From positions 27,350 to 91,349 of the forward strand of contig CAWBGE010000013.1 in the NCBI GenBank assembly GCA_963788185.1: a stretch of 64,000 nt of DNA, read 5' to 3'. The position numbers and the translations under genes were made by a program. Origin of the DNA: an uncultured beta proteobacterium (lineage in GTDB: Bacteria > Pseudomonadota > Gammaproteobacteria > Burkholderiales > Casimicrobiaceae). Below, piece after piece: positions 930-29,191 of this stretch (positions are counted from its first letter, which is position 1; every line of letters begins with the position of its first letter). The notes beneath the pieces are model-generated. The model was not told the DNA's origin, searched no databases, and saw only the letters and a program-made list of their open reading frames with translations.

Positions 930-3032
930 GTGCGGCCACGATTCCCCAGTGCTGATTTCGCCTCCACGACGGCCACGGCAGCGGTGCCCCGCGCGTTGCG
1001 TCGCCGATTTGTCCGGCAGTGCTGCGTCCGGCGACCGCTGCTGGCCGTGATCGTCGGCCTAGCCATCGGCTCTGCCCAGGCGGAGGAGTTCACCACCACC
1101 CGTTTGACCGGCTGGGACGGGTACGTCTCCACCAGCTACTTCGCCGACCAGTTGTCGACGTCGCAGGCGCCGACCGGGAACACTCCCGGCAGCTCGTCGA
1201 GCACCACCCAGAGCGACTTTCGGGTCGACGCGTTTCTGATGACGCACGGCTACGTCTACCACCCGAAGTTCATGACCTTCGACGTGGGCGGCGGGCCGAT
1301 TTTCCAGGTCAGCCGGCTGACGACCGACGGCACCACGGACCGGACCCAGCAGCCGCTGTACAACCTGAGCGCGACCGCCACCTTCCTCGCGGACAAGCCG
1401 TACACCGGAAAGATCTACTACGAGCACCTGAACCCGACCGTCATGCTGAGCCCCGGCGAAGTGTTCCAGGAGGAGACTACCAAGGCCGGCCTCGCCTTCT
1501 CGCTGCTGGCGCCGGTCAGCCCGGTGCCATTCACCGTCGAATTGTGGCAGTTGCATACGCAGGGCGAGAGCACGTTGCGCAGCGTCGACGATCGCATCGA
1601 TCAGTTCACGTTCAAGGGCGACCGCGCCATCGGGACCTACGGCAACACCCAGATCGGCTATCAGGCGCTGCAGCAGGAATCCGCGAGCGGCAGCCTGAAC
1701 CTGCCGATCCAGAGTTCGCGGCTGCGCTCGCAGCAGTTGAACGCCGACACCAGCCTGGAGTTCGGTGCCGATCGCAATTACCGGGTGTTCAACAGCATCG
1801 TCTATTCGAAGAACGACTACACGCTGGAGCAGGGCGCCTCGCCCAAGCTCGACGACTTTCGCGTGCTGCTCAACTATCGCGGCACGCACGCGCGCGAGCT
1901 GCAGTCGGTCGGGAACTACAACTATCTGCGCAGCGTCCAGGACGGGCTGGCGACGACCGTCAACAACATGAACGCGGGGGTGAACTGGCTGCCGATGGCC
2001 GGGTCCTGGGTCTCGGCCGGCGTATTCGGCAGCGACACGCGATCGCCCGATTTCACGCTGCGCAGCTATGGCCCCGAGGCCAGCTTCAATTACGAGCGCC
2101 CGCTGCCGTTCGGCACGGCAACCGTCGGCTACGGCGTGCGCTACGACACGCGCGATCAGCGTGCCGGCACGCCGCAGACTCCGGTCGTGGGCGAGCGCGT
2201 GGTGCTGCGCGGAACCTCGCCGTCGAACCTGGCGCAACCGCTGGTGATCGAGTCGTCGGTGGTCGTCAACAACGCGCAACGCACCCAGGTCTATACGGCC
2301 GGGATCGACTACGAGTTGACCGTGGTCGGGGTGATGACACGGATCCAGCGCATCCTGTCGGGAAGTATCCTCGACGGCGAGGAGGTCCAGGTCGACTATG
2401 TCTACGACGTCGGTGGCACCTTCGCCAGCACCATACTCGACCAAAGCGCCAATCTCAATTGGCGGTGGTCGAACTATCTCAACCTGTACCTTCGCTACTA
2501 CGATTCGCGGCCGCAGGTAACGTCGGGGGTGCCGTCCGCGCCGCTCAACACGATCCACGACCTGACCTACGGCACGCGAGTCGATTGGCCGCTGCGCTTC
2601 GACCTGGAGATGCTGGTGGGCGGCTACGTCGAGCGCGAGGATCGCAACGAGACCATCGCGCCGTTTGTGCGCACCGAGGGCGAGCTCTATGTCCAGTCCG
2701 AATTGCCGCTCGTCACCAACGCGGATCTGCGGGTGGGACTGCGGCGAACGCGCACCGTGGCTGAGAACGAACTTCAGAACGTCAACCTGACTGGGTACGA
2801 CCTGTTGCTGACGTGGCGCTCGCCGCTCGGCATCACCCTTGCGGCCTCCGGCATCTATGAGCGCGACACCGGCGGCATCGACGAGCGTGAGCGCCGCCTC
2901 GGCAAGCTGCGGGCGCTATGGCGGTTCCGGCGGCTCGTCCTGACGCTGGATGTCATTCGCTCGCGCGAGTTGCAGGGCAGCTTCTCGCGCGATCACACCA
3001 GCGGCCAGATCACGCTGCGGAGGGATTTCTGA
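930..3032 (+). CDS. Predicted outer-membrane beta-barrel protein, 700 aa, unknown family
   Basis: The N-terminus has a signal peptide (RRPLLAVIVGLAIGSAQA/EEF). The mature part has no Cys and is rich in G/Y/T/N/R/D with alternating hydrophobic patterns. The C-terminus ends ITLRRDF, and a terminal Phe is typical of BAM substrates. Spacing to both flanking genes is 2-7 nt. Confidence 0.7.
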   Translation: MRPRFPSADFASTTATAAVPRALRRRFVRQCCVRRPLLAVIVGLAIGSAQAEEFTTTRLTGWDGYVSTSYFADQLSTSQAPTGNTPGSSSSTTQSDFRVDAFLMTHGYVYHPKFMTFDVGGGPIFQVSRLTTDGTTDRTQQPLYNLSATATFLADKPYTGKIYYEHLNPTVMLSPGEVFQEETTKAGLAFSLLAPVSPVPFTVELWQLHTQGESTLRSVDDRIDQFTFKGDRAIGTYGNTQIGYQALQQESASGSLNLPIQSSRLRSQQLNADTSLEFGADRNYRVFNSIVYSKNDYTLEQGASPKLDDFRVLLNYRGTHARELQSVGNYNYLRSVQDGLATTVNNMNAGVNWLPMAGSWVSAGVFGSDTRSPDFTLRSYGPEASFNYERPLPFGTATVGYGVRYDTRDQRAGTPQTPVVGERVVLRGTSPSNLAQPLVIESSVVVNNAQRTQVYTAGIDYELTVVGVMTRIQRILSGSILDGEEVQVDYVYDVGGTFASTILDQSANLNWRWSNYLNLYLRYYDSRPQVTSGVPSAPLNTIHDLTYGTRVDWPLRFDLEMLVGGYVEREDRNETIAPFVRTEGELYVQSELPLVTNADLRVGLRRTRTVAENELQNVNLTGYDLLLTWRSPLGITLAASGIYERDTGGIDERERRLGKLRALWRFRRLVLTLDVIRSRELQGSFSRDHTSGQITLRRDF

Positions 3033-4057: not shown

Positions 4058-5736
4058 GACGGGCGGTACGAGGGGCGATCGCTGCCCTGTTGCTTGCGGC
4101 GCTGGCCGGAACGATGCCGGCATGGGCTGCGGTCGCGACGACCAAACACAACCTGTCGACGAGCGGCCCGGGGACGGTCAAGTCCACCACCGAGAGCGAA
4201 ACCTGCGTGTTCTGTCATGCGCCGCACAATGGCGCGCCCGCGGGGGCGCTGTGGAACCGACGGGCGCCGGGCAGCACCTACACTCCGTACACGAGCTCGA
4301 CCGCCCGCGGCAATGCCGGGCAACCCAATGGGGCGTCGCTGCTGTGCCTCTCCTGCCACGACGGGACGATTGCGCTGGGCGAACTGCTCAATCGTGCCAC
4401 GACGGTGGCGATGACATCCGCGAACATGCCGGTGGGTACGACCCGGCTGGGTACCGATCTCTCCGACGATCATCCGGTATCGTTCGCGTATACGGCATCG
4501 CTTGCAACTGCACGCGGCGGCGAACTGGTCAATCCGGCAACGTTGACAGGGAGCGTCAAGCTCGACGGTTCCGGGCAGATGCAGTGCACGTCGTGCCACG
4601 ACCCGCACAACGATGCCAACGGCAAGTTCCTGGTGATGGTCAACCAGGCATCGGCGTTGTGCATGACCTGCCACAGCAAGAGCAATTGGTCGACAAGCGA
4701 CCACAAGCTGTCGGCGCGAACCTGGAACGGCGTGGCGCCGGATCCCTGGCCGCATACGGCAGGTACCACGGTGGCGGCCAACGCCTGCGAGAACTGTCAT
4801 CAGCCGCATTCGGCGCCGGGCAAGAAATGGCTGCTCAACACGGCAGCCGAAGAAAGTACTTGTTTCTCCTGCCACAACGGCAACGTGGCGGCCAAGAACA
4901 TGCAGTCGGAGTTCAACAAGGCGTCGGTCCACTTCGTGTCTGGCACGACGGGGGTTCACGATCCGGCCGAGTCTGCCGTAGTTTCGTCACGCCACGTCGA
5001 ATGTGCCGATTGCCACAATCCCCACGCCGCGTCCGCCGGCGGACCGCTGAGCGGCGTGCGCGGCGTCTCGATTGCCAACACGGAAGTGAATCCGGTCACA
5101 GCCGAATACCAGATCTGCTTTCGTTGTCACGGCGACAGTCCCGGCAAGCCGTCTCCGCGCACGCCACGCCAGATCGCTCAGGCCAACACGCGGCTCGAGT
5201 TCAGCACGACCAACCCGTCCTACCACCCGGTGGCAGGGGTCGGCAAGAACACCAGCGTGCCGAGTCTGATTTCACCGCTGACGACCGCCAGCTCGATCGG
5301 CTGCGGCAGCTGTCACAACAACAACGCGGGCCCCGGCGCCAACGGAACGGGACCCAAGGGGCCGCACGGGTCGACCTACACGCCGTTGCTCGAGCGGCAG
5401 TACGTGACCACCGACAACACCACGGAGAGCGCCGCGAACTACGCGCTCTGCTACAAGTGCCACAGCCGCACCAGCATTCTCGGCAACGCGAGTTTCAAGG
5501 ACCACAACAAGCACATCGTCGGCGAGCGTACACCGTGCAACGTCTGCCACGACCCGCATGGCATCAGTTCGACGCAGGGCAACACGACCAACAACAGCAA
5601 ACTGATCAACTTCGACACCTCGGTGGTGACCGCCGTGTCGCCAACGGTGCCGATCCGCTTTGTCGTGACGGGCACCAACAAGGGAAGTTGCTACCTCGTC
5701 TGTCACGGCAAGTCCCACAACCCGCTGACCTACTGA
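4054..5736 (+). CDS. Multihaem cytochrome c (11 CXXCH plus 1 CX3CH), secreted, 560 aa
   Basis: The start overlaps the upstream stop (ATGA at 4054-4057). Signal peptide: MRRAVRGAIAALLLAALAGTMPAWA. Haem motifs: CVFCH, CLSCH, CTSCH, CMTCH, CENCH, CFSCH, CADCH, CFRCH, CGSCH, CYKCH, CNVCH and a C-terminal CYLVCH. Several sit in CxxCHDPH/CxxCHxPH contexts that resemble doubled-CXXCH domains. Confidence 0.9.
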   Translation: MRRAVRGAIAALLLAALAGTMPAWAAVATTKHNLSTSGPGTVKSTTESETCVFCHAPHNGAPAGALWNRRAPGSTYTPYTSSTARGNAGQPNGASLLCLSCHDGTIALGELLNRATTVAMTSANMPVGTTRLGTDLSDDHPVSFAYTASLATARGGELVNPATLTGSVKLDGSGQMQCTSCHDPHNDANGKFLVMVNQASALCMTCHSKSNWSTSDHKLSARTWNGVAPDPWPHTAGTTVAANACENCHQPHSAPGKKWLLNTAAEESTCFSCHNGNVAAKNMQSEFNKASVHFVSGTTGVHDPAESAVVSSRHVECADCHNPHAASAGGPLSGVRGVSIANTEVNPVTAEYQICFRCHGDSPGKPSPRTPRQIAQANTRLEFSTTNPSYHPVAGVGKNTSVPSLISPLTTASSIGCGSCHNNNAGPGANGTGPKGPHGSTYTPLLERQYVTTDNTTESAANYALCYKCHSRTSILGNASFKDHNKHIVGERTPCNVCHDPHGISSTQGNTTNNSKLINFDTSVVTAVSPTVPIRFVVTGTNKGSCYLVCHGKSHNPLTY

Positions 5737-5778: not shown

Positions 5779-6543
5779 ATGCTGCGACGCCGAACGCTAC
5801 AGGATCTTGCGGCGATGTTGTCGCTGGCGCTGCTGGCTTGCGTCGGAACGACGGCCCGCGCGCAGGATTCGGCCTGCCTGCAATGCCACAGCGACCTGGC
5901 CAAGGAGAAGGTCGTGCACGCCGCATTGCAAATGGGCTGCAAGACCTGCCACACCGGGATCGACGCGTCGAAATACCCGCACAAGCTGACCGGAACGATC
6001 GCCAAGGGACTCTCGGCGCCCGAGGCAGAGCTTTGCATCGGCTGCCACGAGAAGGAGAAGTTCAAGAAGAAGGTCACCCACGCCGCAGTCACCATGGGCT
6101 GCAGTGGCTGTCACGAGCCGCACTCGTCGGCAAACGAGAAGCTGCTGACCGCCAAGCTGCCGGCGGTCTGCCACACGTGCCACGACAAGAAGGAGTTCGC
6201 CGGCAAGATTACCCACGCGCCGGCCGAGGCCGGGATGTGCGGCGCGTGCCATGACCCGCATGCGTCCGATCACGCGGCCCTGCTCACCAAGCCGACAGCG
6301 GCGCTGTGTCTGGAGTGCCACGACGAAGTGAAGAAGAAACCCCACGTGGTGGCGGGCTTCTCCCGCAATGGCCATCCGTTGGGTGACGAAAAACGGCCAG
6401 CACCAGTCGCTGATCCGCTGCGCAAGGACAAGACTTTTTCGTGCACCAGTTGCCACGAACCGCATCGCTCGGAGGTGCCCAGGTTGAACCGCATGGACCC
6501 GAAGTCGTCGACCGGGTTTTGCCAGAAATGTCATCCGATGTGA
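5779..6543 (+). CDS. Nonahaem cytochrome c (9 CXXCH), periplasmic, 254 aa
   Basis: A signal peptide ends in ARAQD. Haem motifs: CLQCH, CKTCH, CIGCH, CSGCH, CHTCH, CGACH, CLECH, CTSCH, CQKCH. They are arranged as repeated dihaem units of the form CxxCH-(about 10)-(V/I)xHA-(about 6)-CxxCH(E/D)PH. Confidence 0.9.
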   Translation: MLRRRTLQDLAAMLSLALLACVGTTARAQDSACLQCHSDLAKEKVVHAALQMGCKTCHTGIDASKYPHKLTGTIAKGLSAPEAELCIGCHEKEKFKKKVTHAAVTMGCSGCHEPHSSANEKLLTAKLPAVCHTCHDKKEFAGKITHAPAEAGMCGACHDPHASDHAALLTKPTAALCLECHDEVKKKPHVVAGFSRNGHPLGDEKRPAPVADPLRKDKTFSCTSCHEPHRSEVPRLNRMDPKSSTGFCQKCHPM

Positions 6544-17621: not shown

Positions 17622-17886
17622 GTGAGCGCGCACCCGGTCGTTCACTGGTCCGAGGACGGCGAGGCGCGCTCCGCGCGCTGGCGCTCGGAGAGCGGAGTGC
17701 CGCCTCCAGCGCGCGTGGTGATCGCCGACGACTGCATGACGGCCGATCATGCGTATGTCCTCGCGTCCCAAGGGACTGCACTGCTGTGGCGGGGCGATTT
17801 CCAGAATGCGCGCCAGATGCTGATTGCGCTGGCGAGCCGCGCCGACCGCCCGCCGCGCAAGGCGAAGAGATCGGCTACAGTCCGCG
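17622..17886 (+). other. Coding-like segment in a different frame from the downstream methyltransferase (possible N-terminal part of a frameshifted gene)
   Basis: The frame starting at GTG 17622 reads VSAHPVVHWSEDGEARSARWRSESGVPPPARVVIADDCMTADHAYVLASQGTALLWRGDFQNARQMLIALASRADRPPRKAK with GC-rich third positions. Codon quality collapses after about 17870, exactly where the +1 frame becomes coding-like. Confidence 0.35.
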
Positions 17887-18783
17887 ATGACCGCATCGCC
17901 CGCCGAAGCCTTCCATCTCCACCGTCAGGCGCGGTCGCAACGTGCGCGCACGCTGCGCGCGCTGCTGCTGCCGCTCGACGCGGACTACCACGTTCCGCTG
18001 CGACGCGCGCCCGACATTCGTCAAGCCTGTGCGGAAGCCTACGGCCCGGGAGCGGGTGCATCGGTCGCCTCGCTGCGGGAGTTGCTGGGCCTCATCGGCG
18101 CGCACGAGTGGCGCAGCAAGGGAATCGAAATCCCCGCGATCGGCGGCCGAATCCATCCGCACTACGGGGTGTTCGCGCCGATTCGCAGCGAATACGTCGA
18201 TCTGATCGCCAGGGCGCCTCTGCCGGCGCTGATGGCGTCGTCGGGCGTGGCCTTCGACATCGGCACCGGCACGGGCGTGCTGGCCGCAGTGCTCGCGCGG
18301 CGCGGCATCGGTCGCGTGGTCGCCACCGATCAGGATCCCCGCGCGCTGGCCTGCGCTCGCGAGAACCTCGAACGTCTCGGGCTGGCGAAGCACGTGGAAG
18401 TCGTGCAGGCGGACCTTTTCCCCGAAGGGCGGGCCGCGCTGGTGGTGTGCAATCCGCCCTGGATTCCCGCGCGGCCGAGCTCTCCGATGGAGCGCGGGAT
18501 CTACGACCCGGAGAGCCGTATGTTGCGTGGGTTTCTGGCCGCGCTGCCTGCACACCTGGCGCCGCAGGGCGAGGGTTGGCTGATTCTCTCGGATTTTGCG
18601 GAGCACCTGGGGCTGCGAACGAGGTCGGAACTGCTCGCCGCGTTCGACGCAGCCGGACTGGAGGTCGTGGATCGGAGCGATTTGCGGCCGAGACATCCCA
18701 GGGCGTCCGACGAATCCGATCCGCTGCACGCGGCGCGAGCCGCCGAGGTCACATCCCTCTGGCGGCTCGCCGCGCTGAAGTGA
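17887..18783 (+). CDS. Class I SAM-dependent methyltransferase (NPPW motif)
   Basis: SAM-binding motif VAFDIGTGTGVLAAVLA. Catalytic-type motif VVCNPPWIP. The start is uncertain; see the upstream fragment at 17622-17886. Confidence 0.8.
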   Translation: MTASPAEAFHLHRQARSQRARTLRALLLPLDADYHVPLRRAPDIRQACAEAYGPGAGASVASLRELLGLIGAHEWRSKGIEIPAIGGRIHPHYGVFAPIRSEYVDLIARAPLPALMASSGVAFDIGTGTGVLAAVLARRGIGRVVATDQDPRALACARENLERLGLAKHVEVVQADLFPEGRAALVVCNPPWIPARPSSPMERGIYDPESRMLRGFLAALPAHLAPQGEGWLILSDFAEHLGLRTRSELLAAFDAAGLEVVDRSDLRPRHPRASDESDPLHAARAAEVTSLWRLAALK

Positions 18784-18954: not shown

Positions 18955-19263
18955 TTGCAAAGTGGACCCAATATGGACAAGCCCAGCAGCATGCGCGTGA
19001 ACGAAAATATCGACCAAATACACCGGGAAGTCTATTCGCTGCTGGAGAAATTCCTGCACAGCTACCACGCCTGGTTGTACATCAGCGACAAACACAACCC
19101 GATTCTCAATGCCGCCCAAGCCAAAGGCCTGATGCTCGCGCACCGGCAGCGGTGGCTTGACGCCGAAGCTGTCTATGTTGAGTTTCTGTCGCGCCTGGCA
19201 GCGAAGAAGCCCAAGCAAAGCGAGCCATCGAAGGAGGAGCGAGGGACATCGCCGCCTACGTAA
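18955..19263 (+). CDS. Hypothetical protein in a locally lower-GC segment
   Basis: A 102-aa ORF with codon periodicity but atypical composition for this window. I recognise no homologue. Alternative starts exist at M7 and M13. Confidence 0.45.
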   Translation: MQSGPNMDKPSSMRVNENIDQIHREVYSLLEKFLHSYHAWLYISDKHNPILNAAQAKGLMLAHRQRWLDAEAVYVEFLSRLAAKKPKQSEPSKEERGTSPPT

Positions 19264-19285
19264 TACTCGATGTCGAGATATCGGG

Positions 19286-19597
19286 TGGGCCGTGTTGGAC
19301 TTGAACCAACGACCAAAGGATTCAGGTTTCGTGCGGGTTTCCCCGCTCCCCGGACTATCTCATCACCCACCATCGCTGGTTGGGGTGTCGGGCGCTCTTG
19401 GCGGTCTTAAAGGGACTGAACCCCACCCGCTAGTCTCTGCACCTTCCACCGATGCATCGGTGGCTTGGCTCAGGATTGCCGTGGCCTGGAACTGGCTTTA
19501 GGTTTCCCTGAATTCACCCGATTCTCGGTCTGCGGTTTCCCGCAGGCGACACCATTCTTGATGAGTCCTCTGCTCTGACCAGCTGAGCTAACGGCCC
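19286..19597 (-). tRNA. tRNA-Ile(CAU) (ileX-like) interrupted by a group I intron
   Basis: The 5' exon is GGGCCGTTAGCTCAGCTGGTCAGAGCAGAGGACTCAT (19597-19561). The 3' exon is AATCCTTTGGTCGTTGGTTCAAGTCCAACACGGCCCA (19322-19286). Joined, they fold into a canonical 74-nt cloverleaf with anticodon loop CUCAUAA. The variable loop and T-arm resemble E. coli ileX as I remember it. A Met identity cannot be excluded. Confidence 0.85.
19323..19560 (-). ncRNA. Group I intron (238 nt, IC3-like) in the tRNA anticodon loop
   Basis: The intron is inserted after CAU, with U at the 5' splice site and a terminal G (omega-G) before the AA of the loop. It contains the blocks GGGAAACCTAAAGCC, GGCAATCCTGAGCCAAGC and GGAAGGTGCAGAGACTAGCGGG. 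These closely resemble the core of the Azoarcus pre-tRNA-Ile intron as I recall it. No ORF is present. Confidence 0.8.
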
Positions 19598-19606
19598 TAG
19601 GCATGG

Positions 19607-19612
19607 ATTATA
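19607..19612 (-). promoter_or_regulatory. Candidate -10 element (TATAAT) for the tRNA gene
   Basis: The minus strand reads CCCTATAATCC, ending 9 nt upstream of the mature tRNA 5' end. No convincing -35 was found. Confidence 0.4.
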
Positions 19613-19838
19613 GGGGGATTGGCTCGAACGTGGTTCGCGAGGCGCACGAGTCGCGAACGCCATGAGCCTACTCAGCCGCGCGGCAGCGCGTTAGAATCGC
19701 GTCGACCGACCATGGAGCCATGGCCGTGTGCGCTCCGGCGCCGCAGGCCCCAAGCGAGCATCCCTCGGCAGGAGGATTTTCTTACCATCGTCGCCGGACT
19801 CCTGCCGCCATGACTTCCCCCTTCCGTGAGCTGTCCGC

Positions 19839-22529
19839 ATGAGTTCGCTGCAGCACTATCTGCGCCCGCTGCTCGCCCCGGCGTCAGTGGCGCTGGTCGG
19901 TGCTTCCGACAAGCCGGCCACGCTGGGTCGCATCGTGCTCGAGAATCTGCTCGAAGGCGGGTTCAAGGGTGATCTGTACCCGGTCAATCCCAAGCATCGG
20001 CGCGTGCTCGGCAAGCGCTGTTACGCGTCGCTTCCGGCTATCGGCAAGCCGGTTGAACTCGCGCTGATCGGGGTTCCGTGCGCGGCGGTGCCGGGCGTGC
20101 TCGACGACGGCGCCCGCGTCGGCGTCAAGGCCGCGATCATCCTCTCGGCGCCGCCGATCGACGAGGGGGAGGCGCGGCGCTGGCAACGCGACCTGGTCGC
20201 CACGGCCAAAAAGCGCAAGATCCGCCTGCTGGGACCGCACGCGTATGGCGTCATCCGCACCGAAATCGGGCTCAACGCGACGATGGGCGCGGGGCTGGCG
20301 CTTCCCGGCCGCCTGGCGCTGATCGCGCAGTCGGGGGCGGTGTGCACGGCGATGCTCAATTTCGCCGCACCCAACGGCATCGGCTTCTCCACCGTGGCTG
20401 CGGTCGGGGGCGCGCTGGACATCGGTTTTGGCGAGCTGCTCGACGCCCTGGTGCTCGATCCGCAGACCGATGGCATCCTGCTGTACGTGGAGAAGGTCTC
20501 CGACGCGCGCCGTTTCCTGTCGGCGCTGCGGGCGGCCGCGCGGACCAAGCCCGTGGTCGTGCTGCGCGCCGGACGTTCCGCCGAGGCGCATCTCGCGGGC
20601 AGCGGCTCGGATGCGCCGTCGCCGGACGCCGTGTTCGATGCGGCGATGAAGCGCGCGGGCACGGTGCGCGTGATGACGTACACGCAGCTCTTCGCGGCGG
20701 CGCGCATTCTCGCGATGGGCAAGCTGCCGCGGGGCGATCGGCTGGCGATCATCACCAACGGCCATGGACCGGGAACGATGGCCGCTGACGCCGCGGCCGA
20801 TCGCGGCGTGGTGCTGGCCGAATTGTCGCCGGAGACCGAAAAGGCATTGGCCGCGGTGCTGCCGCCCAACGTGGCCTCGAAGAACCCCATCAACGTGCGC
20901 GGGGACGCGTCGCCGGAGCGGCTGGCCGCGGCCGTATCCGCGACGCTAGCCGATCCGCAGGTCGACGCCGTGCTGGCGCTGCACGTCCAGCGGCCGGCGA
21001 CCGGGGCGACGGACGCGGCGCGGGCGGTGGCCAAGGTCGCGCGCGGCGCGTCGAAGCCGGTGCTCGGCGCCTGGCTCGGTGCCATCGGCGGCCGCGAAGT
21101 GCGCGACGCGCTGGAGGCGGGCGGCGTCGCCGATTTCTATACGCCGGAGAATGCGGTCGATGCGTTCTCTTTCCTCGCCGCCTACCGGCGCAACCAGCAG
21201 TGGCTGCTGGAAGTGCCGGCATCGCAGCCGGAGCCCGAGCCGCCGGATACCACCTTGGCCGAGCGCATTCGCGACGATGCGGCCGCCGCGAATCACACGG
21301 TGTTGAGCGACTGGCAAACGCGGCAGCTGCTGGCGGCGTTTGGAATGCCGGTCGAACGCGTGGAGCCCGCCGATACGCTGGCGGAGGCGCTCGCCGTCGC
21401 GCGCAGGCTGGGGTACCCGGTGCGGCTCAAGCTCGACATTTCGGGCCTGCATCCGCGCGCTCCGCTGCCTGTGGACGGATTGCTGCGAACCAGTCTGCGC
21501 AACGGCCGGATGCTCTCCCGCGCGTATGGCGACATGCTGGCGAACGTCGGGTTGCCTTCGGACCGCGGCGATTTCCAGGTGCGCGCGCTGGTCGGCAAGC
21601 TGCCGCCGGTGCCGGACGCGCGGGAGGTCGCCATCGGCGTCTATGCCGATGCCGTTTTTGGTCCGGTGATCACCTTCGGCAACAGCGGGGCGGCGGCGCT
21701 GATCGACGCCGAGCGCACGGTGCTGCTGCCTCCGCTCAACCACCGTCTCGCGACCGATCTCATCAGCGGCAGCCGTGCAGCCGCGTCGCTGCGCAAGAAC
21801 CGCGACACGGCGCCCGACCTCGATCCGCTGGTGCGCATCCTGCTGCAGGTCTCGAGCCTGGTCTGTGCGTTGCCGTGGGTGAGTTCGCTGACGCTCGATC
21901 CCGTGCTTGTCGGCGCCGGAGTCGCGGTCATCGCAGCGGCCCGGATCACCATCGATCCCAAGCGCAAGTTCGCGACGGGCGGCTACCGGCACATGGCGAT
22001 CCATCCGTATCCGATCGAAATGGTCGCCGACGTGCCGTTGCGCGACGGGACGGTGCTGCACGTGCGTCCGATCATGCCGGAAGATGCCGAGCGCGAACGC
22101 GCGTTCGTCCATGCGCTGTCGGAGCAGACCCGTTACTACCGGTTCTTCTACCGGATGCACGAGCTGACGCCGGCGATGCTGGCGCGGTTCACGCAGGTCG
22201 ACTACGACCGCGAACTGGCGCTGGTCGCGATCGAAGACAATGCCACCCATCCGACGTTCGTCGGCGTGGCGCGCTACATCGGAAATCCCGATCAGGAGAG
22301 CGCGGAGTTCGCGGTGGTGGTGGCGGACGCATGGCAGAACCGCGGCGTCGCGCGGATGCTGATGGAGCGCCTGATTGCGTGCGCGCGGAAGCGCGGACTG
22401 CGGCGGCTGGAAGGCGCGGTGCTGCGCAACAACGCCAACATGATCCGCTTCACCGAGGGCCTGGGCTTCGTCACACACGACGATCCGGAAGAGCCCGAGC
22501 AGGTGAACACCGTGCTCGAACTCTCCTGA
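19839..22529 (+). CDS. Pat-type protein acetyltransferase: NDP-forming acyl-CoA synthetase-like domains fused to a C-terminal GNAT
   Basis: The N-terminus has a CoA-binding region ([37 protein letters not shown]). An ATP-grasp-like region sits in the middle. The C-terminal GNAT carries an acetyl-CoA loop, [22 protein letters not shown]. Total length is 896 aa. Confidence 0.88.
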
Positions 22530-22531
22530 AG

Positions 22532-22547
22532 GCGCTCCTACAGCGAA

Positions 22548-22550
<3 letters not shown>
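22532..22550. repeat. Truncated REP fragment between convergent pat and rpoD stops
   Basis: GCGCTCCTACAGCGAATCA matches the right end of the 16722-16788 doublet (GTCGCTCCTACAGCGATTCA) with 2 mismatches. Only one arm is present. Confidence 0.45.
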
Positions 22551-25001
<2,451 letters not shown>

Positions 25002-25062
25002 GGTGTTCCTAGCGATTCGAAAGCAGAGCCCCTGGACGTGGGGCCGATCGGGAAAACTTCAA

Positions 25063-25071
25063 ATTATAACA
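25063..25071 (-). promoter_or_regulatory. Candidate extended -10 promoter (TGTTATAAT) upstream of rpoD
   Basis: The minus strand reads TGTTATAAT in the 90-nt dnaG-rpoD spacer, about 60 nt upstream of the rpoD ATG. There is no clear -35, which fits extended -10 promoters. Confidence 0.45.
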
Positions 25072-25091
25072 TGATGTTAGAGGGCGACCCG

Positions 25092-26900
25092 TCATTCCAG
25101 CGGCCCTTGAGGCTCGTCGTTCGGGCGCGGCAGGCCGCGACGGACGATGCCGAGTTGGCGCAGGCGCTCCAGTTCCTCCACCGAGCGGCCGTCGCCTGTG
25201 GCGATCGAAGGCGCCTCGCCGGCGCGCTCGGCCTGCTGCCACAGCCGCGCGACGCCGGCCGTGACTGCAAGCGCCGCCTGGTCCGATGGCAGCGCGTGAT
25301 CGGTCGCCGTGGCGAGTGCCGCCGCAAGGATCGGCTCGTGCTCGGAGGTGCTGAAAGCCTGCATGATCGCGGGTGTCGTCGGGTTGCGCGTCTGGGCCTG
25401 GCAATGCTCGATCAGCGCACGGAGCGCGGCGATTTCGCCAATGCCGGCCACGAATTCCGGCAATACGATTCCGTGCGCGAGTTCGGGTTGGAACAGGAGA
25501 TTCTGGATCAGTTCGCGGACCAGCGACGGCGCGCGCCGGCGGACGGGTCCGGCGCCGCCGCGGTTGCGTCGGTCCACCGGCGCACTGTCCTGCCGCCTTG
25601 CCTCCCGCAAACCCGGCGCGCCGCTGCCGGCCGGCAGCAGCTGGCGCAGCTCGGCATCGGGCAATTGCGTCAGTTCCCCCAGCCGATGCCGCAGCAGCGC
25701 CGAGAGTATCGGCGCGGTGATCTCGCCCATCAGCGGACGCGCCGCCGCGAGCAGCGCCGAACGGCCTTCCGCACTCACCGGGGGGTGCCGCGCCGACAGT
25801 TCCATCAGCAGGAACTCCGACAGCGGCGTCGCGCGGTCGATCAGCGCTTCGAACGCCGCCTTGCCGCGCTGGCGGATGAAGTCGTCGGGATCCTCGCCTT
25901 CGGGCAGGAACAGGAAGACGGCCTGCTTGCCGTCGGCGATGACCGGCAGGGTGTTTTCCAGCGCCCGCCACGCGGCCTTGCGCCCTGCCGCGTCCCCGTC
26001 GAAGCAGTAGACGACGGTGTCGGCCACGCGAAAGAGCTTTTGCGCGTGAGTCGGCGTGGTCGCGGTGCCCAGCGTCGCGACGGCATAGTCGACGCCGTGC
26101 TGCGCCAGTGCGACGACGTCCATGTACCCCTCGACGACGACGACCCGGCCGGCGTCGCGGATCGCATTGCGCGCGAGGAACAGGCCATACAGCTCGCGCC
26201 CTTTGGAAAACAGCGGGGTCTCGGGCGAGTTGAGGTACTTGGGCTCACCTTGACCGAGAACTCTTCCGCCGAAGCCGATGACTTGGCCGCGGGTATCGTG
26301 GATCGGAAACATGATCCGGTCCCGAAAGCGGTCGTAGCGCTTGCCGCCGTCGCCGGCGATGACCAGTCCGGCGGTTTCCAGCGCCGGATTGTCGTAGTCG
26401 GTGAGGGTCGCGGCCAACGGCTGCCAGCCGTCGGGCGCGTAGCCGATGCCGAAGCGCGCGGCGATCGCACCGGTGAGGCCGCGCTCCTTGAGGTAGGCGA
26501 TGGCCTTCGGGCTGTCCTTGAGCGCGGCACGATAGAACTTTGCCGCCGCCAGCAACCAGCCGGTGAGATCCTGCGCCTGCTCGCGCCGCTGCGCGTCGCC
26601 GGGTTGCTCGATGCGCGGTACGGCGAGGCCCACATCGCGCGCCAGTTCTTCGACGGCTTCGGGAAACGACTTGCCGGCGTGTTCCATCAGGAAGCCGATC
26701 GCAGTGCCGTGAGCACCGCAGCCGAAGCAATGGTAGAACTGCTTCGATTGGCTCACCGTGAACGACGGCGATTTCTCGCTGTGGAACGGGCAGCAGGCGA
26801 CGTGGTTGGCGCCGGCCTTTTTCAGCGGCACGTGACGATCGATCACCTCGACGATGTCGACCCGCGACAACAGCGTCTCGATGAAATCGCCTGGAATCAT
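25092..26900 (-). CDS. dnaG: DNA primase
   Basis: The N-terminal zinc ribbon CCPFHSEKSPSFTVSQSKQFYHCFGCGAHG is present. The TOPRIM segment VVVVEGYMDVVAL is also present. Length is 602 aa. Confidence 0.95.
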   Translation of the reverse strand: MIPGDFIETLLSRVDIVEVIDRHVPLKKAGANHVACCPFHSEKSPSFTVSQSKQFYHCFGCGAHGTAIGFLMEHAGKSFPEAVEELARDVGLAVPRIEQPGDAQRREQAQDLTGWLLAAAKFYRAALKDSPKAIAYLKERGLTGAIAARFGIGYAPDGWQPLAATLTDYDNPALETAGLVIAGDGGKRYDRFRDRIMFPIHDTRGQVIGFGGRVLGQGEPKYLNSPETPLFSKGRELYGLFLARNAIRDAGRVVVVEGYMDVVALAQHGVDYAVATLGTATTPTHAQKLFRVADTVVYCFDGDAAGRKAAWRALENTLPVIADGKQAVFLFLPEGEDPDDFIRQRGKAAFEALIDRATPLSEFLLMELSARHPPVSAEGRSALLAAARPLMGEITAPILSALLRHRLGELTQLPDAELRQLLPAGSGAPGLREARRQDSAPVDRRNRGGAGPVRRRAPSLVRELIQNLLFQPELAHGIVLPEFVAGIGEIAALRALIEHCQAQTRNPTTPAIMQAFSTSEHEPILAAALATATDHALPSDQAALAVTAGVARLWQQAERAGEAPSIATGDGRSVEELERLRQLGIVRRGLPRPNDEPQGPLE

Positions 26901-27073
26901 GGAATGGGGACTCGCATCGTCGCGGGCTGCACCGGGCTCCGGAGCGGAACCGCGACGGCCGGGCCGGATACGTCACAACGTGGGGGCGATTCGGATTATA
27001 GGCAACCCCGCCGCTGCGATGAGAACATTGTGCGTTGCCGGCGCGCGTGCGTCGCGTCGGCGCCGCGATCGGA

Positions 27074-27520
27074 TCATCCGGCCAGCCGCGCCTTGATCCG
27101 GGCGGACACGATGCTCATGTCGGCCCGTCCGGCGAGATTCGGCTTGAGCGCCGCCATCACCTTGCCCATGCCGGCCATCCCCGAGGCCCCGGTGGTTGCG
27201 ATCGCCTGCGCGATCAAGGTGTCGATCTCGGCATCGGACAGTTGTGCGGGCATGTACGTCTGAAGCACGGCGACCTCCGCTTGCTCGACCGCGGCCAGGT
27301 CGGGGCGCTTGCCGGCTTCGAACTGCGTGATCGAGTCCTTGCGCTGCTTGATCATCTTGTCGATCACCGACAGCACGTCGGCGTCGGTGAGTTCGACGCG
27401 CTCGTCCACCTCGCGCTGCTTGATCGCGGCCAGCAGCATGCGGATGGCCGACAGGCGCGCGGCGTCCTTCGCGCGCATCGCGTCCTTCATGTCGTCGGTG
27501 ATCTTGGTCTTCAGGGGCAT
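27074..27520 (-). CDS. GatB/YqeY domain protein
   Basis: MPLKTKITDDMKDAMRAKDAARLSAIRMLLAAIKQREVDERVELTDADVLSVIDKMIKQRKDS is typical of the YqeY family. Length is 148 aa. Confidence 0.85.
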   Translation of the reverse strand: MPLKTKITDDMKDAMRAKDAARLSAIRMLLAAIKQREVDERVELTDADVLSVIDKMIKQRKDSITQFEAGKRPDLAAVEQAEVAVLQTYMPAQLSDAEIDTLIAQAIATTGASGMAGMGKVMAALKPNLAGRADMSIVSARIKARLAG

Positions 27521-27590
27521 CGCGGACTCCGTCGTGGGCGGGATGGACCGGCGCCGTGCCGTCGTGCCGGCGGCGCGACGGGCGTGCCGG

Positions 27591-27620
27591 AAATGCAAAA
27601 GGGGCGAATCGCTTCGCCCC
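27591..27620 (-). terminator. Rho-independent terminator/attenuator downstream of rpsU
   Basis: The minus-strand transcript reads GGGGCGAA-GCGA-TTCGCCCC followed by UUUUGCAUUU, starting 30 nt after the rpsU stop. The E. coli operon has a terminator in the equivalent position between rpsU and dnaG. Confidence 0.6.
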
Positions 27621-27650
27621 TCGTCGAGTACGGTACGTGCAGCGCCGGCG

Positions 27651-27863
27651 TCAGAAGAGCTTGGGCGGCAACTGCTGGCTGCGCAGGCGCTTGTAGTGAC
27701 GCTTGACCGCGGCGGCGAGCTTGCGCTTGCGCTCGGAGGTCGGCTTTTCGTAGAACTCGCGGGCCCGCAGCTCGGTGAGGAGGCCGGTCTTTTCGATGCT
27801 GCGCTTGAAGCGGCGCAGCGCCACCTCGAACGGCTCGTTCTCGCGAACGCGAACACTGGTCAT
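27651..27863 (-). CDS. rpsU: 30S ribosomal protein S21
   Basis: [63 protein letters not shown] (70 aa). Confidence 0.95.
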
Positions 27864-27908
27864 GAATCTGGTTCCTTGTTGGGAAGCTGCCAAAGGCGAT
27901 AGCCCTGA

Positions 27909-27937
27909 AATATAGCGCGAAACACGGGCCGTGGCAA
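27909..27937 (-). promoter_or_regulatory. Sigma70-type promoter for rpsU (TTGCCA-17-TATATT)
   Basis: The minus strand reads TTGCCA (27937-32), a 17-nt spacer, then TATATT (27914-09). It lies about 45 nt upstream of the rpsU ATG. Confidence 0.5.
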
Positions 27938-28162
27938 CAGGGATGAAACCGCCCGAGCGTTCCGCCCTGAGCAGCATGAGCCCGAAGGGCCGCCCCGAGG
28001 GCGAATACCGGAGTGCGCAGCATGAAGGTAGTCCAGTGAGCGTTCGCCCCGAGCTTGTCGAACGATGCCGGCAGCGGTAGCCGGGGCGCGCCCGCGTCCC
28101 CCGAGGCCCCCGATTCAGGTATCGTGACGGCCCCAGTTCACCTCCCGGCCCTCCCTGCCGCC

Positions 28163-29191
28163 ATGCGCGTCCTCGGTATCGAGACCTCCTGCGACGAGAC
28201 CGGGCTTGCCGTCTACGACAGCGAGCGGGGCCTCGTCGCCCACGCGCTGCACTCGCAGGTGGCGATGCACGAGGCGTACGGCGGCGTCGTGCCGGAACTC
28301 GCGTCGCGCGATCACGTCCGCCGGGTGGTTCCGCTGGCGCAGAAGGTGCTGGGCGAGGCGGGACTTGTACTGGCGGATCTCGACGGGTTCGCCTGCACGC
28401 AGGGGCCGGGCCTCGCGGGGGCGCTGCTGGTCGGCGCCAGCGTCGCCCATGCGCTCGGTTTTGCGCTGCAGAAACCGGTCGTGCCCGTGCATCACCTCGA
28501 AGGGCATCTGCTCTCGCCGTTGCTCGCCGAACCCAAGCCGGCGTTCCCGTTCGTCGCGCTGCTGGTGTCGGGCGGCCACACGCAATTCTTCGAAGTGTCC
28601 GGCGTGGGCCGGTATCGGCTGCTGGGCGAGTCGCAGGACGACGCCGCCGGCGAGGCCTTCGACAAGACGGCAAAGCTCCTCGGTTTGGGGTATCCGGGCG
28701 GCCCGGCGCTGGCTCGGTTGGCCGAGCGCGGGCGCCCAGGCTTGATCCGCCTGCCGCGACCCATGCACGACAGCGGCGATCTCGACATGAGTTTTTCCGG
28801 CCTCAAGACCGCGGTGCTGACGGTCGTGAGGCGGGCAGCGGACGCAGGCAACCTCGACGACGCGAAGCGCGCCGACATCGCCGCCGAATTCCAGGCTGCC
28901 GTGGTGGATGTCCTCGTCGGCAAGTCGGTCGCCGCGCTTGCCCAGACCGGCCACTCCCGGCTGGTCGTCGCCGGCGGCGTCGGTGCCAACCGTGAGTTGC
29001 GCGCGCGGTTGCCGGCGGCCATCACCCGGCGCGGCGGCAGTGTGTATTTCCCCGACCTTTCGTTCTGCACCGACAACGGGGCGATGATCGCGCTGGTCGG
29101 CGCGCTGCGGCTCGCGGGTACGCCGCGCGGCGATTACGCGTTCTCGGTGCGGCCGCGGTGGAATCTCGCATCGCTGGAAGTGCCGGGGTAA
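28163..29191 (+). CDS. tsaD: tRNA N6-adenosine threonylcarbamoyltransferase
   Basis: [19 protein letters not shown] matches the canonical TsaD N-terminus. HMEGHLL-type (HLEGHLLSP) and VSGGHT motifs are present. The gene is divergent from rpsU, as in E. coli. Confidence 0.93.

Follow-up and report, generated by a model that had tools for sequence, protein, structure and literature searches.

Known since 1992, the group I intron of transfer RNA (tRNA)-Ile2 genes has become a textbook ribozyme. The pre-tRNA-Ile of Azoarcus, whose intron belongs to subgroup IC3, self-splices in vitro (PMC13168695), and in the 80,413 bacterial genomes surveyed by Williams 2020 (bioRxiv 10.1101/2020.01.27.920355) 5292 tRNA genes proved to be split by a group I intron, with four classical classes (Leu.3Ug, Arg.5Ug, fMet.2Ug for formylmethionine, and Ile2.5Ug) that GISSD, as cited in that study, lists as IC3. 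Here we describe a split tRNA gene in a stretch of 64,000 nucleotides (nt) from contig CAWBGE010000013.1 of an uncultured betaproteobacterium, the whole of which is referred to as the window. Our analysis makes it highly probable that this is a chromosomal tRNA-Ile2 (CAU) gene of a high-GC betaproteobacterium, split between U36 and A37 by a 238-nt group I intron devoid of an open reading frame (ORF). An initial annotation, made from the letters alone, had proposed a tRNA-Ile(CAU) gene with a 238-nt group I intron at 19286-19597, and the match to Rfam model RF00028, the exons, synteny and covariation all agree with it; its remark that group I introns are rare in bacterial tRNA genes is outdated, given the numbers above and the classical standing of Ile2.5Ug.

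In the Ile2.5Ug class of Williams 2020, the host is tRNA-Ile2 and the intron follows the fifth nucleotide of the anticodon loop, with a U at position -1 and an omega G, a definition that the window locus fits exactly. With the intron of Azoarcus sp. BH72 (A. olearius) it has in common the tRNA-Ile2 (CAU) host, the site after U36, the U.G wobble and the terminal G. However, whereas the seed representative of the class, Aol6, lacks a hairpin between P7 and P3', the window intron belongs to a hairpin-bearing subset, and this hairpin is its sole architectural difference from the Azoarcus intron.

Exons and splice sites

The split gene occupies 19597..19286 on the minus strand and comprises a 37-nt 5' exon, the 238-nt intron and a 37-nt 3' exon; the coordinates given initially were all exact, with the strand left unstated.

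19597..19561, minus strand: 5' exon of tRNA-Ile2, GGGCCGUUAGCUCAGCUGGUCAGAGCAGAGGACUCAU, 37 nt, from the ARAGORN cloverleaf of the joined exons; acceptor 5' strand, D arm, anticodon stem 5' strand, C32 U33 C34 A35 U36
19560..19323, minus strand: intron, 238 nt, first bases CAAGAAUGG, last bases GAAACCUG
19322..19286, minus strand: 3' exon of tRNA-Ile2, AAUCCUUUGGUCGUUGGUUCAAGUCCAACACGGCCCA, 37 nt, from the ARAGORN cloverleaf of the joined exons; A37 A38, anticodon stem 3' strand, variable loop, T arm, acceptor 3' strand, discriminator A73

As had been proposed, the two exons of 37 nt join into a canonical cloverleaf of 74 nt with the anticodon CAU in ARAGORN (which states 76 nt, since the three genomic bases after A73, CCC, get appended); the junction reads CUCAU followed by AAUCC, placing the insertion between nucleotides 36 and 37. 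Run with default settings on the 64-kb window, ARAGORN returned zero tRNAs because the intron splits the gene. The covariance search with RF00028 (Intron_gpI), a check that the initial annotation had suggested, yielded a match at 19572..19331 on the minus strand over the full model (positions 1-253), with 70.4 bits against a gathering threshold of 50 (E = 8e-16), a score far beyond chance.

The 5' splice site falls between 19561 and 19560, after U36, and the 3' splice site between 19323 and 19322, with G19323 as the terminal omega-G; the U.G wobble that U36 forms in P1 and the G at 19323 bear out the claim that the intron starts after U36 and ends in G, and the final intron base is a G in all 17 relatives. 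From the exons alone the solution is ambiguous, because the insert opens with CAU-like bases and closes with CUG, and four joining registers yield a 7-nt anticodon loop. A U at -1 together with a G at omega is found in the CAU register only, and for that reason we prefer it over the alternative of ARAGORN; the pipeline of Williams 2020 likewise puts the U-1/omegaG rule first, such a pair being present in 98.5% of its cases. A homing endonuclease within the intron was excluded, as the intron is only 238 nt long and has no ORF.

Identity of the host tRNA

The tRNA in the window carries G3-C70, C4-G69, C5-G68 and C11-G24. According to Silva et al. 2006 (PMC1635315), tRNAs with a CAU anticodon that belong to Ile and Met are difficult to tell apart, but G3/C70 point to tRNA-Ile and rule out Met and fMet, G3-C70 being a complete negative discriminator for the latter two, and Ile(CAT) typically has C4-G69 and C5-G68; since A11-T24 is the mark of fMet in the same study, the C11-G24 pair of the window tRNA excludes an fMet identity. 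All universal tRNA positions are kept in both exons and the cloverleaf is perfect. Among 5426 Escherichia coli genomes, the top match was a full-length one, at 85% identity, to a gene that PGAP annotates as 'tRNA-Ile' with anticodon CAT, and ileX of strain K-12 is annotated as tRNA-Ile(CAU). As in hosts of the Ile2.5Ug class, the CAU anticodon is thus found on an Ile-type, not a Met or fMet, tRNA body. Of the 719 Ile codons counted over 28 genes of the window, 10 are AUA, including one in dnaG; none of the 28 ORFs scanned in the window was identified as tilS.

We also observed that two body types of tRNA-Ile2 host introns at the same site. Type 1 has a 37-nt 5' exon and a standard D loop (window, L025 and others), and type 2, which includes Azoarcus, has a 38-39-nt 5' exon and a CUCAUG(C/A)UUGGUUA D loop (L094, L202 and L184 among the loci that set it apart). 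Because both bodies bear hairpin introns and the Azoarcus body also bears hairpin-less ones, the subtype of the intron does not strictly follow that of the tRNA.

Architecture of the intron

We aligned the window intron (MAFFT) with 16 homologous introns from CAU-tRNA genes, 17 sequences in all, writing P3 and P7 as a pseudoknot. The nearest relative found, L243, lies on a contig of the metagenome-assembled genome (MAG) GCA_963853075.1, whose RpoD is 92% identical over 79% of the query and which shares the gene order; its split gene (L243:13016-13327, 312 nt, 88% identical to the window gene) came to light when the gap that follows the Pat-like gene was read. The 238 nt can be segmented in full into P1, P2, P3, P4, P5, P6/P6a, P7, the extra hairpin, P3', P8, J8/7, P7', P9.0, P9 and the terminal G.

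19550..19563, minus strand: P1, exon C34 A35 U36 plus intron C1 A2 paired with the guide UGGUG (19554..19550), loop AGAA
19525..19549, minus strand: P2 hairpin with GAAA tetraloop; 7 of 9 pairs change on both sides across relatives
19515..19521, minus strand: P3 5' strand UCGGGUG, pairing with 19394..19388 in the P3/P7 pseudoknot
19470..19511, minus strand: P4-P5 domain; P4 UCAGGG/UCCUGA, J4/5 AAA, P5 with a CCUAAAG...CCACGG internal loop
19441..19469, minus strand: P6/P6a hairpin; GCC...GGU, CCACCG/CGGUGG, compensatory A-U to G-C relative to L243
19431..19437, minus strand: P7 5' strand G(A)GACUA, guanosine-binding helix, pairing with 19357..19352 (UAGUCC), from the Rfam alignment
19401..19430, minus strand: extra hairpin, at the topological place of P7.1
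19388..19394, minus strand: P3 3' strand CGCCCGA
19364..19387, minus strand: P8 hairpin with GCGA tetraloop; lower stem 100% paired, three covarying pairs, A-U to G-C relative to L243
19352..19363, minus strand: J8/7 (AUGAGA) and P7 3' strand (UAGUCC), (near-)invariant in 17 of 17 sequences
19323..19351, minus strand: P9.0 (GGG/CCU), P9 hairpin (GAAA tetraloop) and omega-G

The features expected of a group I intron are present together, namely a score above gathering, the U.G wobble in P1, an omega-G with P9.0, the P3/P7 pseudoknot and the P4-P6 domain; P5abc is absent, as expected for IC3. In P1, the C-G, A-U and U.G pairs are invariant in the 17 sequences, and the pair that follows them covaries (CG in 15, AU in two). 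P3 is paired in 99.2% of cells and contains two covarying pairs, with CG replaced by UA in five sequences; P4 is paired in 99% of cells, one of its pairs covarying, and the closing pairs of P5 are invariant. At the 3' end, all four scored pairs of P9 covary, and the strands of P9.0, which stops directly before G19323, vary in step (AGG/CCU, AGC/GCU, AAG/CUU). All six pairs of P7 are 100% paired and invariant; for this reason P7 is uninformative on covariation, its support coming from conservation and the Rfam model.

Compensatory changes in the fold

Over the whole alignment, standard pairs occupied 89.8% of cells vs. 78.9% after shuffling and 34-42% when the partners were slid by 1-3 columns, and 35 pairs changed on both sides, a number reached by none of 500 shuffles. 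The covarying helices are P2, P3, P4, P6a, P8, P9 and the extra hairpin, with P7 and the closing pairs of P5 and P6 invariant, and every catalytic-core segment of the window intron equals the consensus of the 17 homologues. Pairing is low (45-51%) at the tips of P5a and P6a, which we regard as an artefact rather than as counter-evidence because MAFFT misaligns hairpin tips of variable length. Between the window and L243 there are 36 differences, 11 of them in paired positions; six pairs are changed, five by double and one by single-sided substitution, and none is broken. Since every changed pair keeps pairing, the ribozyme fold, extra hairpin included, is under purifying selection in this lineage, which argues against a decaying pseudogene.

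The hairpin between P7 and P3'

The additional element (19430..19401, GCGGGUGGGGUUCAGUCCCUUUAAGACCGC, 30 nt) follows the P7 5' strand and precedes the P3 3' strand. Its outer stem pairs GCGG with CCGC and its inner stem GGGG with CCCU; the inner stem is capped by the loop UUCAGU, and on the 3' side there is a purine-rich asymmetric loop, UUAAGA. In the 17-intron alignment, three of the five outer-stem pairs change on both sides, with 92.9% of cells paired, and the inner stem shows a G-C to A-U change relative to L243. Six homologues are predicted to fold alike, with an outer stem, an inner stem whose loop has 6 nt and, on the 3' side, an asymmetric loop rich in purines (UUAAGA, GUAAGA, UAAUGA or GAUAAG). 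By this comparative evidence, the extra hairpin is a genuine helix.

Such a helix is not new, given that the published seed alignment of Williams 2020 (gpI.sto) and its consensus structure line already hold helices at this position for other tRNAs (Lys.2Ug, Asn.4Ug, Phe.2Ug and Leu.1Ug), with two in introns of transfer-messenger RNA (tmRNA). Together with Asn, Thr, Asp and Leu loci, these introns form a hairpin-bearing set with a helix between P7 and P3' and share with the window intron the core signature GGGUGAAUUC, GCAGAGACUA, AGCGCCCG and AUGAGAUAGUCC, but they reside in other host tRNAs and at other anticodon-loop positions, and the form of the hairpin varies. An extra helix at the same topological position is also known as P7.1/P7.2 in subgroup IA (phage T4 td, Twort) and in tmRNA introns. 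In contrast to the two helices of the IA module, the window intron has a single two-stem hairpin and otherwise looks like the small bacterial tRNA introns listed as IC3.

Variants of this region were observed at other loci. In many tRNA-Asn(GUU) introns (L139, L159, L166, L172, L193 and many further metagenome loci), two hairpins follow one another between P7 and P3': the first has an AGC...GCU stem capped by GNRA or UUCG, and CGUAC separates it from the second, whose stem is longer and G+C-rich. The arrangement resembles the P7.1 plus P7.2 pair found in tmRNA introns and in subgroup IA. In Thr(UGU) introns the region takes a short form with a single loop, GGAGUGACGGAAGAAUAAUCUCC.

Comparison with the Azoarcus intron

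As reference we used the A. olearius intron in row Aol6.Ile2.5Ug of the Williams 2020 seed alignment, which is consistent with the ribozyme template in PMC8890501. The two introns are 58.7% identical in a global alignment (238 vs. 205 nt) and have the same helices in the same order from P1 to P9, with shared elements differing by at most 2 nt in length (window/Azoarcus: P2 25/25, P5 24/25, P6 29/31, P8 24/23, P9 region 29/28) and GAAA tetraloops on both P2 and P9. Core strings identical in both are GAAACCUAA, GAGCCAAGC, GAAGGUG.AGAGACUAG and AUAGUCC. Of the conserved blocks quoted in the initial annotation, GAAACCUAA, GAGCCAAGC and GAAGGUGCAGAGACUAG are present, but the last one reads ...UAGCGGG (ACUAGCGGG) and not ...UAG.CGG.

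There remained differences between the two introns as evidenced by: 1) J7/3, which is 3 nt in Azoarcus and a 30-nt hairpin plus a 6-nt junction in the window, an excess of 33 nt, so that the minimal Azoarcus-type architecture (a 3-nt J7/3 with no element between P7 and P3') is not what the window intron has; 2) P3, which is UCGGGUG/CGCCCGA in the window vs. GGUGUC/GGCACC in Azoarcus, and J8/7, which is AUGAGA vs. AAGGCA; 3) the 5' exon, which has 37 nt with a standard D loop in the window vs. 39 nt in Azoarcus. The earlier estimate of about 30 nt of extra length therefore holds, but its placement in the P8/P9 portion does not, because these regions are nearly equal in length in the two introns (24 vs. 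23 nt and 29 vs. 28 nt) and the excess lies between P7 and P3'. The description of the locus as a natural variant of the Azoarcus ribozyme is right as to host, site and helices, but the window intron is not merely a longer Azoarcus intron, its core being nearer to those of hairpin-bearing introns.

Relatives at tRNA-Ile2 and other tRNA sites

Scanning one genome per species for the P6-P7 core gave at least 120 matches, with tRNA-Leu(UAA), Arg, CAU, Asn, Thr, Phe and other tRNAs as hosts in many phyla, and scanning metagenomes for the core with a 25-45-nt insertion before AGCGCCCG likewise gave at least 120; counts by host tRNA are samples among the matches listed, and the metagenome pattern itself selected for an insertion between P7 and P3'. 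In the species sample, the CAU-gene introns among the matches listed comprised at least six Azoarcus-like ones without the hairpin (Polynucleobacter, Neisseriaceae, Propionivibrio and others) and at least four to five with it (Comamonadaceae and Burkholderiaceae MAGs, Hydrogenophaga, Variovorax). The hairpin-bearing structural subtype is common in Burkholderiales and, for other tRNAs, is already published; its signature is a P3 of GGGUG/CGCCC, a J6/7 of GC and a J8/7 of AUGAGA.

We measured distances between introns as p-distances over 176 well-occupied core columns of a MAFFT alignment, a measure that does not amount to a phylogeny. The window intron stood at 0.25-0.31 from the hairpin-bearing CAU-gene introns, at 0.29-0.36 from the hairpin-bearing introns of Asn, Leu, Asp and Phe tRNAs and at 0.41-0.46 from the Azoarcus-like CAU-gene introns. 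Among the matches listed, its nearest non-Ile neighbours were an Asn (L045, 0.29), a Leu (L030, 0.33) and an Asp intron (L092, 0.34), and at least about 25 introns of unrelated tRNA hosts were nearer to it than the Azoarcus-like Ile ones. These core distances suggest that introns of two distinct sub-lineages occupy the same site in tRNA-Ile2 genes. A bolder proposal, which we entertain tentatively and hold to be rather doubtful, is that the hairpin-bearing introns are a separate lineage that colonised the tRNA-Ile2 loop independently of the Azoarcus type, or replaced it, so that two ribozymes would occupy one site across Burkholderiales, and that the asymmetric loop makes a tertiary contact undescribed in small bacterial tRNA introns.

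Two records titled Candidatus Pacearchaeota archaeon (L009 and L033) also carry the group I core pattern, L009 in a split tRNA-Asn gene; a similar case in a Pacearchaeota bin led Williams 2020 to suspect that bacterial scaffolds had been mis-binned. On one proteobacterial MAG contig (L012), two core matches lie on opposite strands about 500 nt apart (5633-5667, plus strand; 6133-6166, minus strand), one of them within a tRNA-Leu(UAA) gene and the other at a place for which ARAGORN named no host.

Chromosomal setting

The window has a G+C content of 66.6%. Those homologues of its RpoD that bear a name come from MAGs of Casimicrobiaceae, Burkholderiales or Betaproteobacteria, which points to Burkholderiales, and possibly to Casimicrobiaceae, as the source. 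Upstream of the tRNA gene and in the same orientation are rpoD and dnaG, and upp (Pfam Upp) is among the neighbours. The following features surround the split gene:

22548..25001, minus strand: rpoD (NCBIfam RpoD, 910 bits)
25092..26900, minus strand: dnaG (NCBIfam DnaG, 463 bits)
28055..29191, plus strand: tsaD (NCBIfam)
19839..22529, plus strand: Pat-like acyl-CoA synthetase/GNAT fusion (NCBIfam)
17824..18783, plus strand: HemK-like methyltransferase (NCBIfam)
19607..19612, minus strand: candidate -10 hexamer TATAAT, ending 10 nt upstream of the tRNA 5' end, read by eye

This order matches that around ileX of E. coli K-12, where tsaD, rpsU-dnaG-rpoD, mug and ileX follow one another; the window has tsaD, dnaG-rpoD, one opposite-strand gene and the tRNA gene, the intervening gene being mug in E. 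coli and the Pat-like acyl-CoA synthetase/GNAT gene here. Unlike the window gene, with whose exons it is 85% identical, ileX has no intron and encodes CCA. The ileX-type locus marks the gene as the ancestral housekeeping copy of tRNA-Ile2, as opposed to a surplus one carried by a mobile element. The order from tsaD to tRNA-Ile2 (19286..29191 in the window) is an old linkage conserved between beta- and gammaproteobacteria, and rpoD lies immediately upstream at several further intron-bearing CAU loci, the flanking genes otherwise varying among loci with this intron type. No integrase or repeat indicative of a genomic island was seen at the 3' end of the tRNA gene, where the neighbours are upp, the HemK-like methyltransferase gene and a 102-aa ORF. 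Hexamers resembling a -10 box are found 8-12 nt upstream in relatives as well (TATAAT in L243 and L140, TAGAAT in L229, GATAAT in L025), and TATAAT, as read from the sequence, probably serves as the tRNA gene's own promoter.

The 102-aa ORF (18955..19263, plus strand) runs towards the tRNA gene, stops 23 nt short of the 3' end of that gene, lies in a stretch with a G+C content of 0.57-0.58 vs. 0.67 for the window and matches no Pfam or NCBIfam family; it may be a small orphan gene or a non-coding spacer. Farther away, the sole family match of a 700-aa ORF (930..3032, plus strand) is to the phage tail tube family NF052337 at 24.7 bits vs. a cut-off of 60, and is probably not meaningful.

Discussion

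Some of our observations weigh against a functional, self-splicing tRNA-Ile2 gene at this locus. A scan of 19100-19900 on both strands for consensus promoters and terminators returned no sites, the promoter result owing to the lack of a good -35 hexamer for a two-hexamer search. CCA is not encoded, A73 being followed by CCC (19283..19285, minus strand; GGCCC-A-CCC); the same ACCC is found in L243 (L243:13328-13330), the Comamonadaceae and Burkholderiaceae relatives encode ACCA, and 3' trimming with CCA addition is hence implied for the lineage. P7 and much of the core are invariant, so that pairing there rests on conservation and the Rfam model, and z-scores from single-sequence folding, considered for the hairpin, were modest (-0.8 to -2.9). 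Self-splicing of the window intron is itself something we infer from its sequence and from analogy. Based on the position of the hairpin and its conserved purine-rich asymmetric loop, we surmise that it may be a peripheral brace stabilizing the P3-P7 core, but this is a guess.

The absence of an encoded CCA and the empty promoter and terminator scan would also be in line with a decayed relic, that is, a pseudogene with a non-splicing intron in a genome where another tRNA-Ile2 copy reads AUA. We consider such a relic very improbable, however, because the universal tRNA positions are all kept within a perfect cloverleaf, the catalytic-core segments match the consensus of the 17 homologues, the gene sits at the conserved ileX position downstream of rpoD, and the six pairs changed vs. 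L243 still pair, five of them by double substitution, which neutral decay would not be expected to produce. An equally slim chance attaches to the idea that the host is an elongator tRNA-Met, leaving TilS without a role: ARAGORN does call any CAU tRNA 'Met', and Ile and Met versions are hard to separate (PMC1635315), but G3-C70, C4-G69 and C5-G68 are all in place (PMC1635315), the top E. coli match is a tRNA-Ile with the CAT anticodon and the locus is syntenic with ileX.

As to the boundaries of the intron, ARAGORN in intron mode (-i) reports a tRNA-Gln(CUG) with a 238-nt intron at 34/35, and the CAU at the start and the CUG at the end of the intron do leave the exon-only solution open to it. 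This call implies excision after U33 and an anticodon CUG, and we dropped it since it would make C, not G, the omega nucleotide. P1 sets the U.G wobble at U36 with three pairs invariant in 17 relatives, P9.0 covaries and ends directly before G19323, the tRNA body fits tRNA-Ile2 and the U-1/omegaG pair prevails in the cases of Williams 2020, and we accordingly give the CUG register next to no credence. A genuine group I intron that is not autonomous in vivo, with the hairpin as a protein-binding site and a host cofactor or chaperone needed for splicing, is unlikely, although less so than the preceding alternatives. It would give a role to the conserved purine-rich asymmetric loop (UUAAGA, UAAUGA, AUAAG), which has no assigned partner, and would fit the P8 of the window, which is without a receptor-like motif of the kind carried by P8 of Azoarcus. 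But the core is complete and compact, L2 and L9 are GAAA tetraloops as in Azoarcus, the intron has no ORF, and no conserved adjacent cofactor gene was seen, the flanks differing among the loci that carry this intron type.

For the split tRNA-Ile2 gene that we favor, we postulate a maturation pathway in which each step is derived from sequence and homology, with the self-splicing of Azoarcus (PMC13168695) as the experimental precedent. The minus strand would be transcribed, probably from the gene's own promoter (TATAAT, 19612..19607), and the intron would fold into the standard group I core with P1-P2, P4-P6 and the P3-P7-P8 pseudoknot. The last exon bases, CAU, would pair with the guide UGGUG, placing U36 in the U.G wobble, and a free guanosine bound in P7 would attack after U36. 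The terminal G19323, positioned by P9.0, would then take over the same P7 pocket, and the freed 3'-OH of U36 would attack after G19323, joining the exons into the 74-nt tRNA. RNase P and 3' trimming would act next, followed by CCA addition, and TilS would turn C34 into lysidine, yielding a tRNA that reads AUA and is charged with isoleucine.

The intron adds an ordinary representative to one of the four classical, well-known classes of bacterial tRNA introns and carries little weight as a discovery, with split bacterial tRNA genes, Ile2.5Ug included, already catalogued by the thousands. As a compact natural relative of the Azoarcus ribozyme with one covarying hairpin at J7/3, it would nevertheless offer a clean system for the role of this element in folding and stability. 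There is also a consequence for genome annotation: RF00028 scored the L243 intron (L243:13056-13283) at only 33.9 bits against the cut-off of 50, vs. 70.4 for the window copy, a search at the gathering threshold had no matches in L243 and L244 (the L244 stretch examined ends before the tRNA), and default ARAGORN misses the genes of both the window and L243. With the Rfam model marginal for this subtype and default tRNA finders blind to it, genomes of the lineage will seem to lack tRNA-Ile2. If this locus is the sole tRNA-Ile2 gene of the organism, it is plausible that decoding of the rare but used AUA codon hinges on RNA self-splicing.

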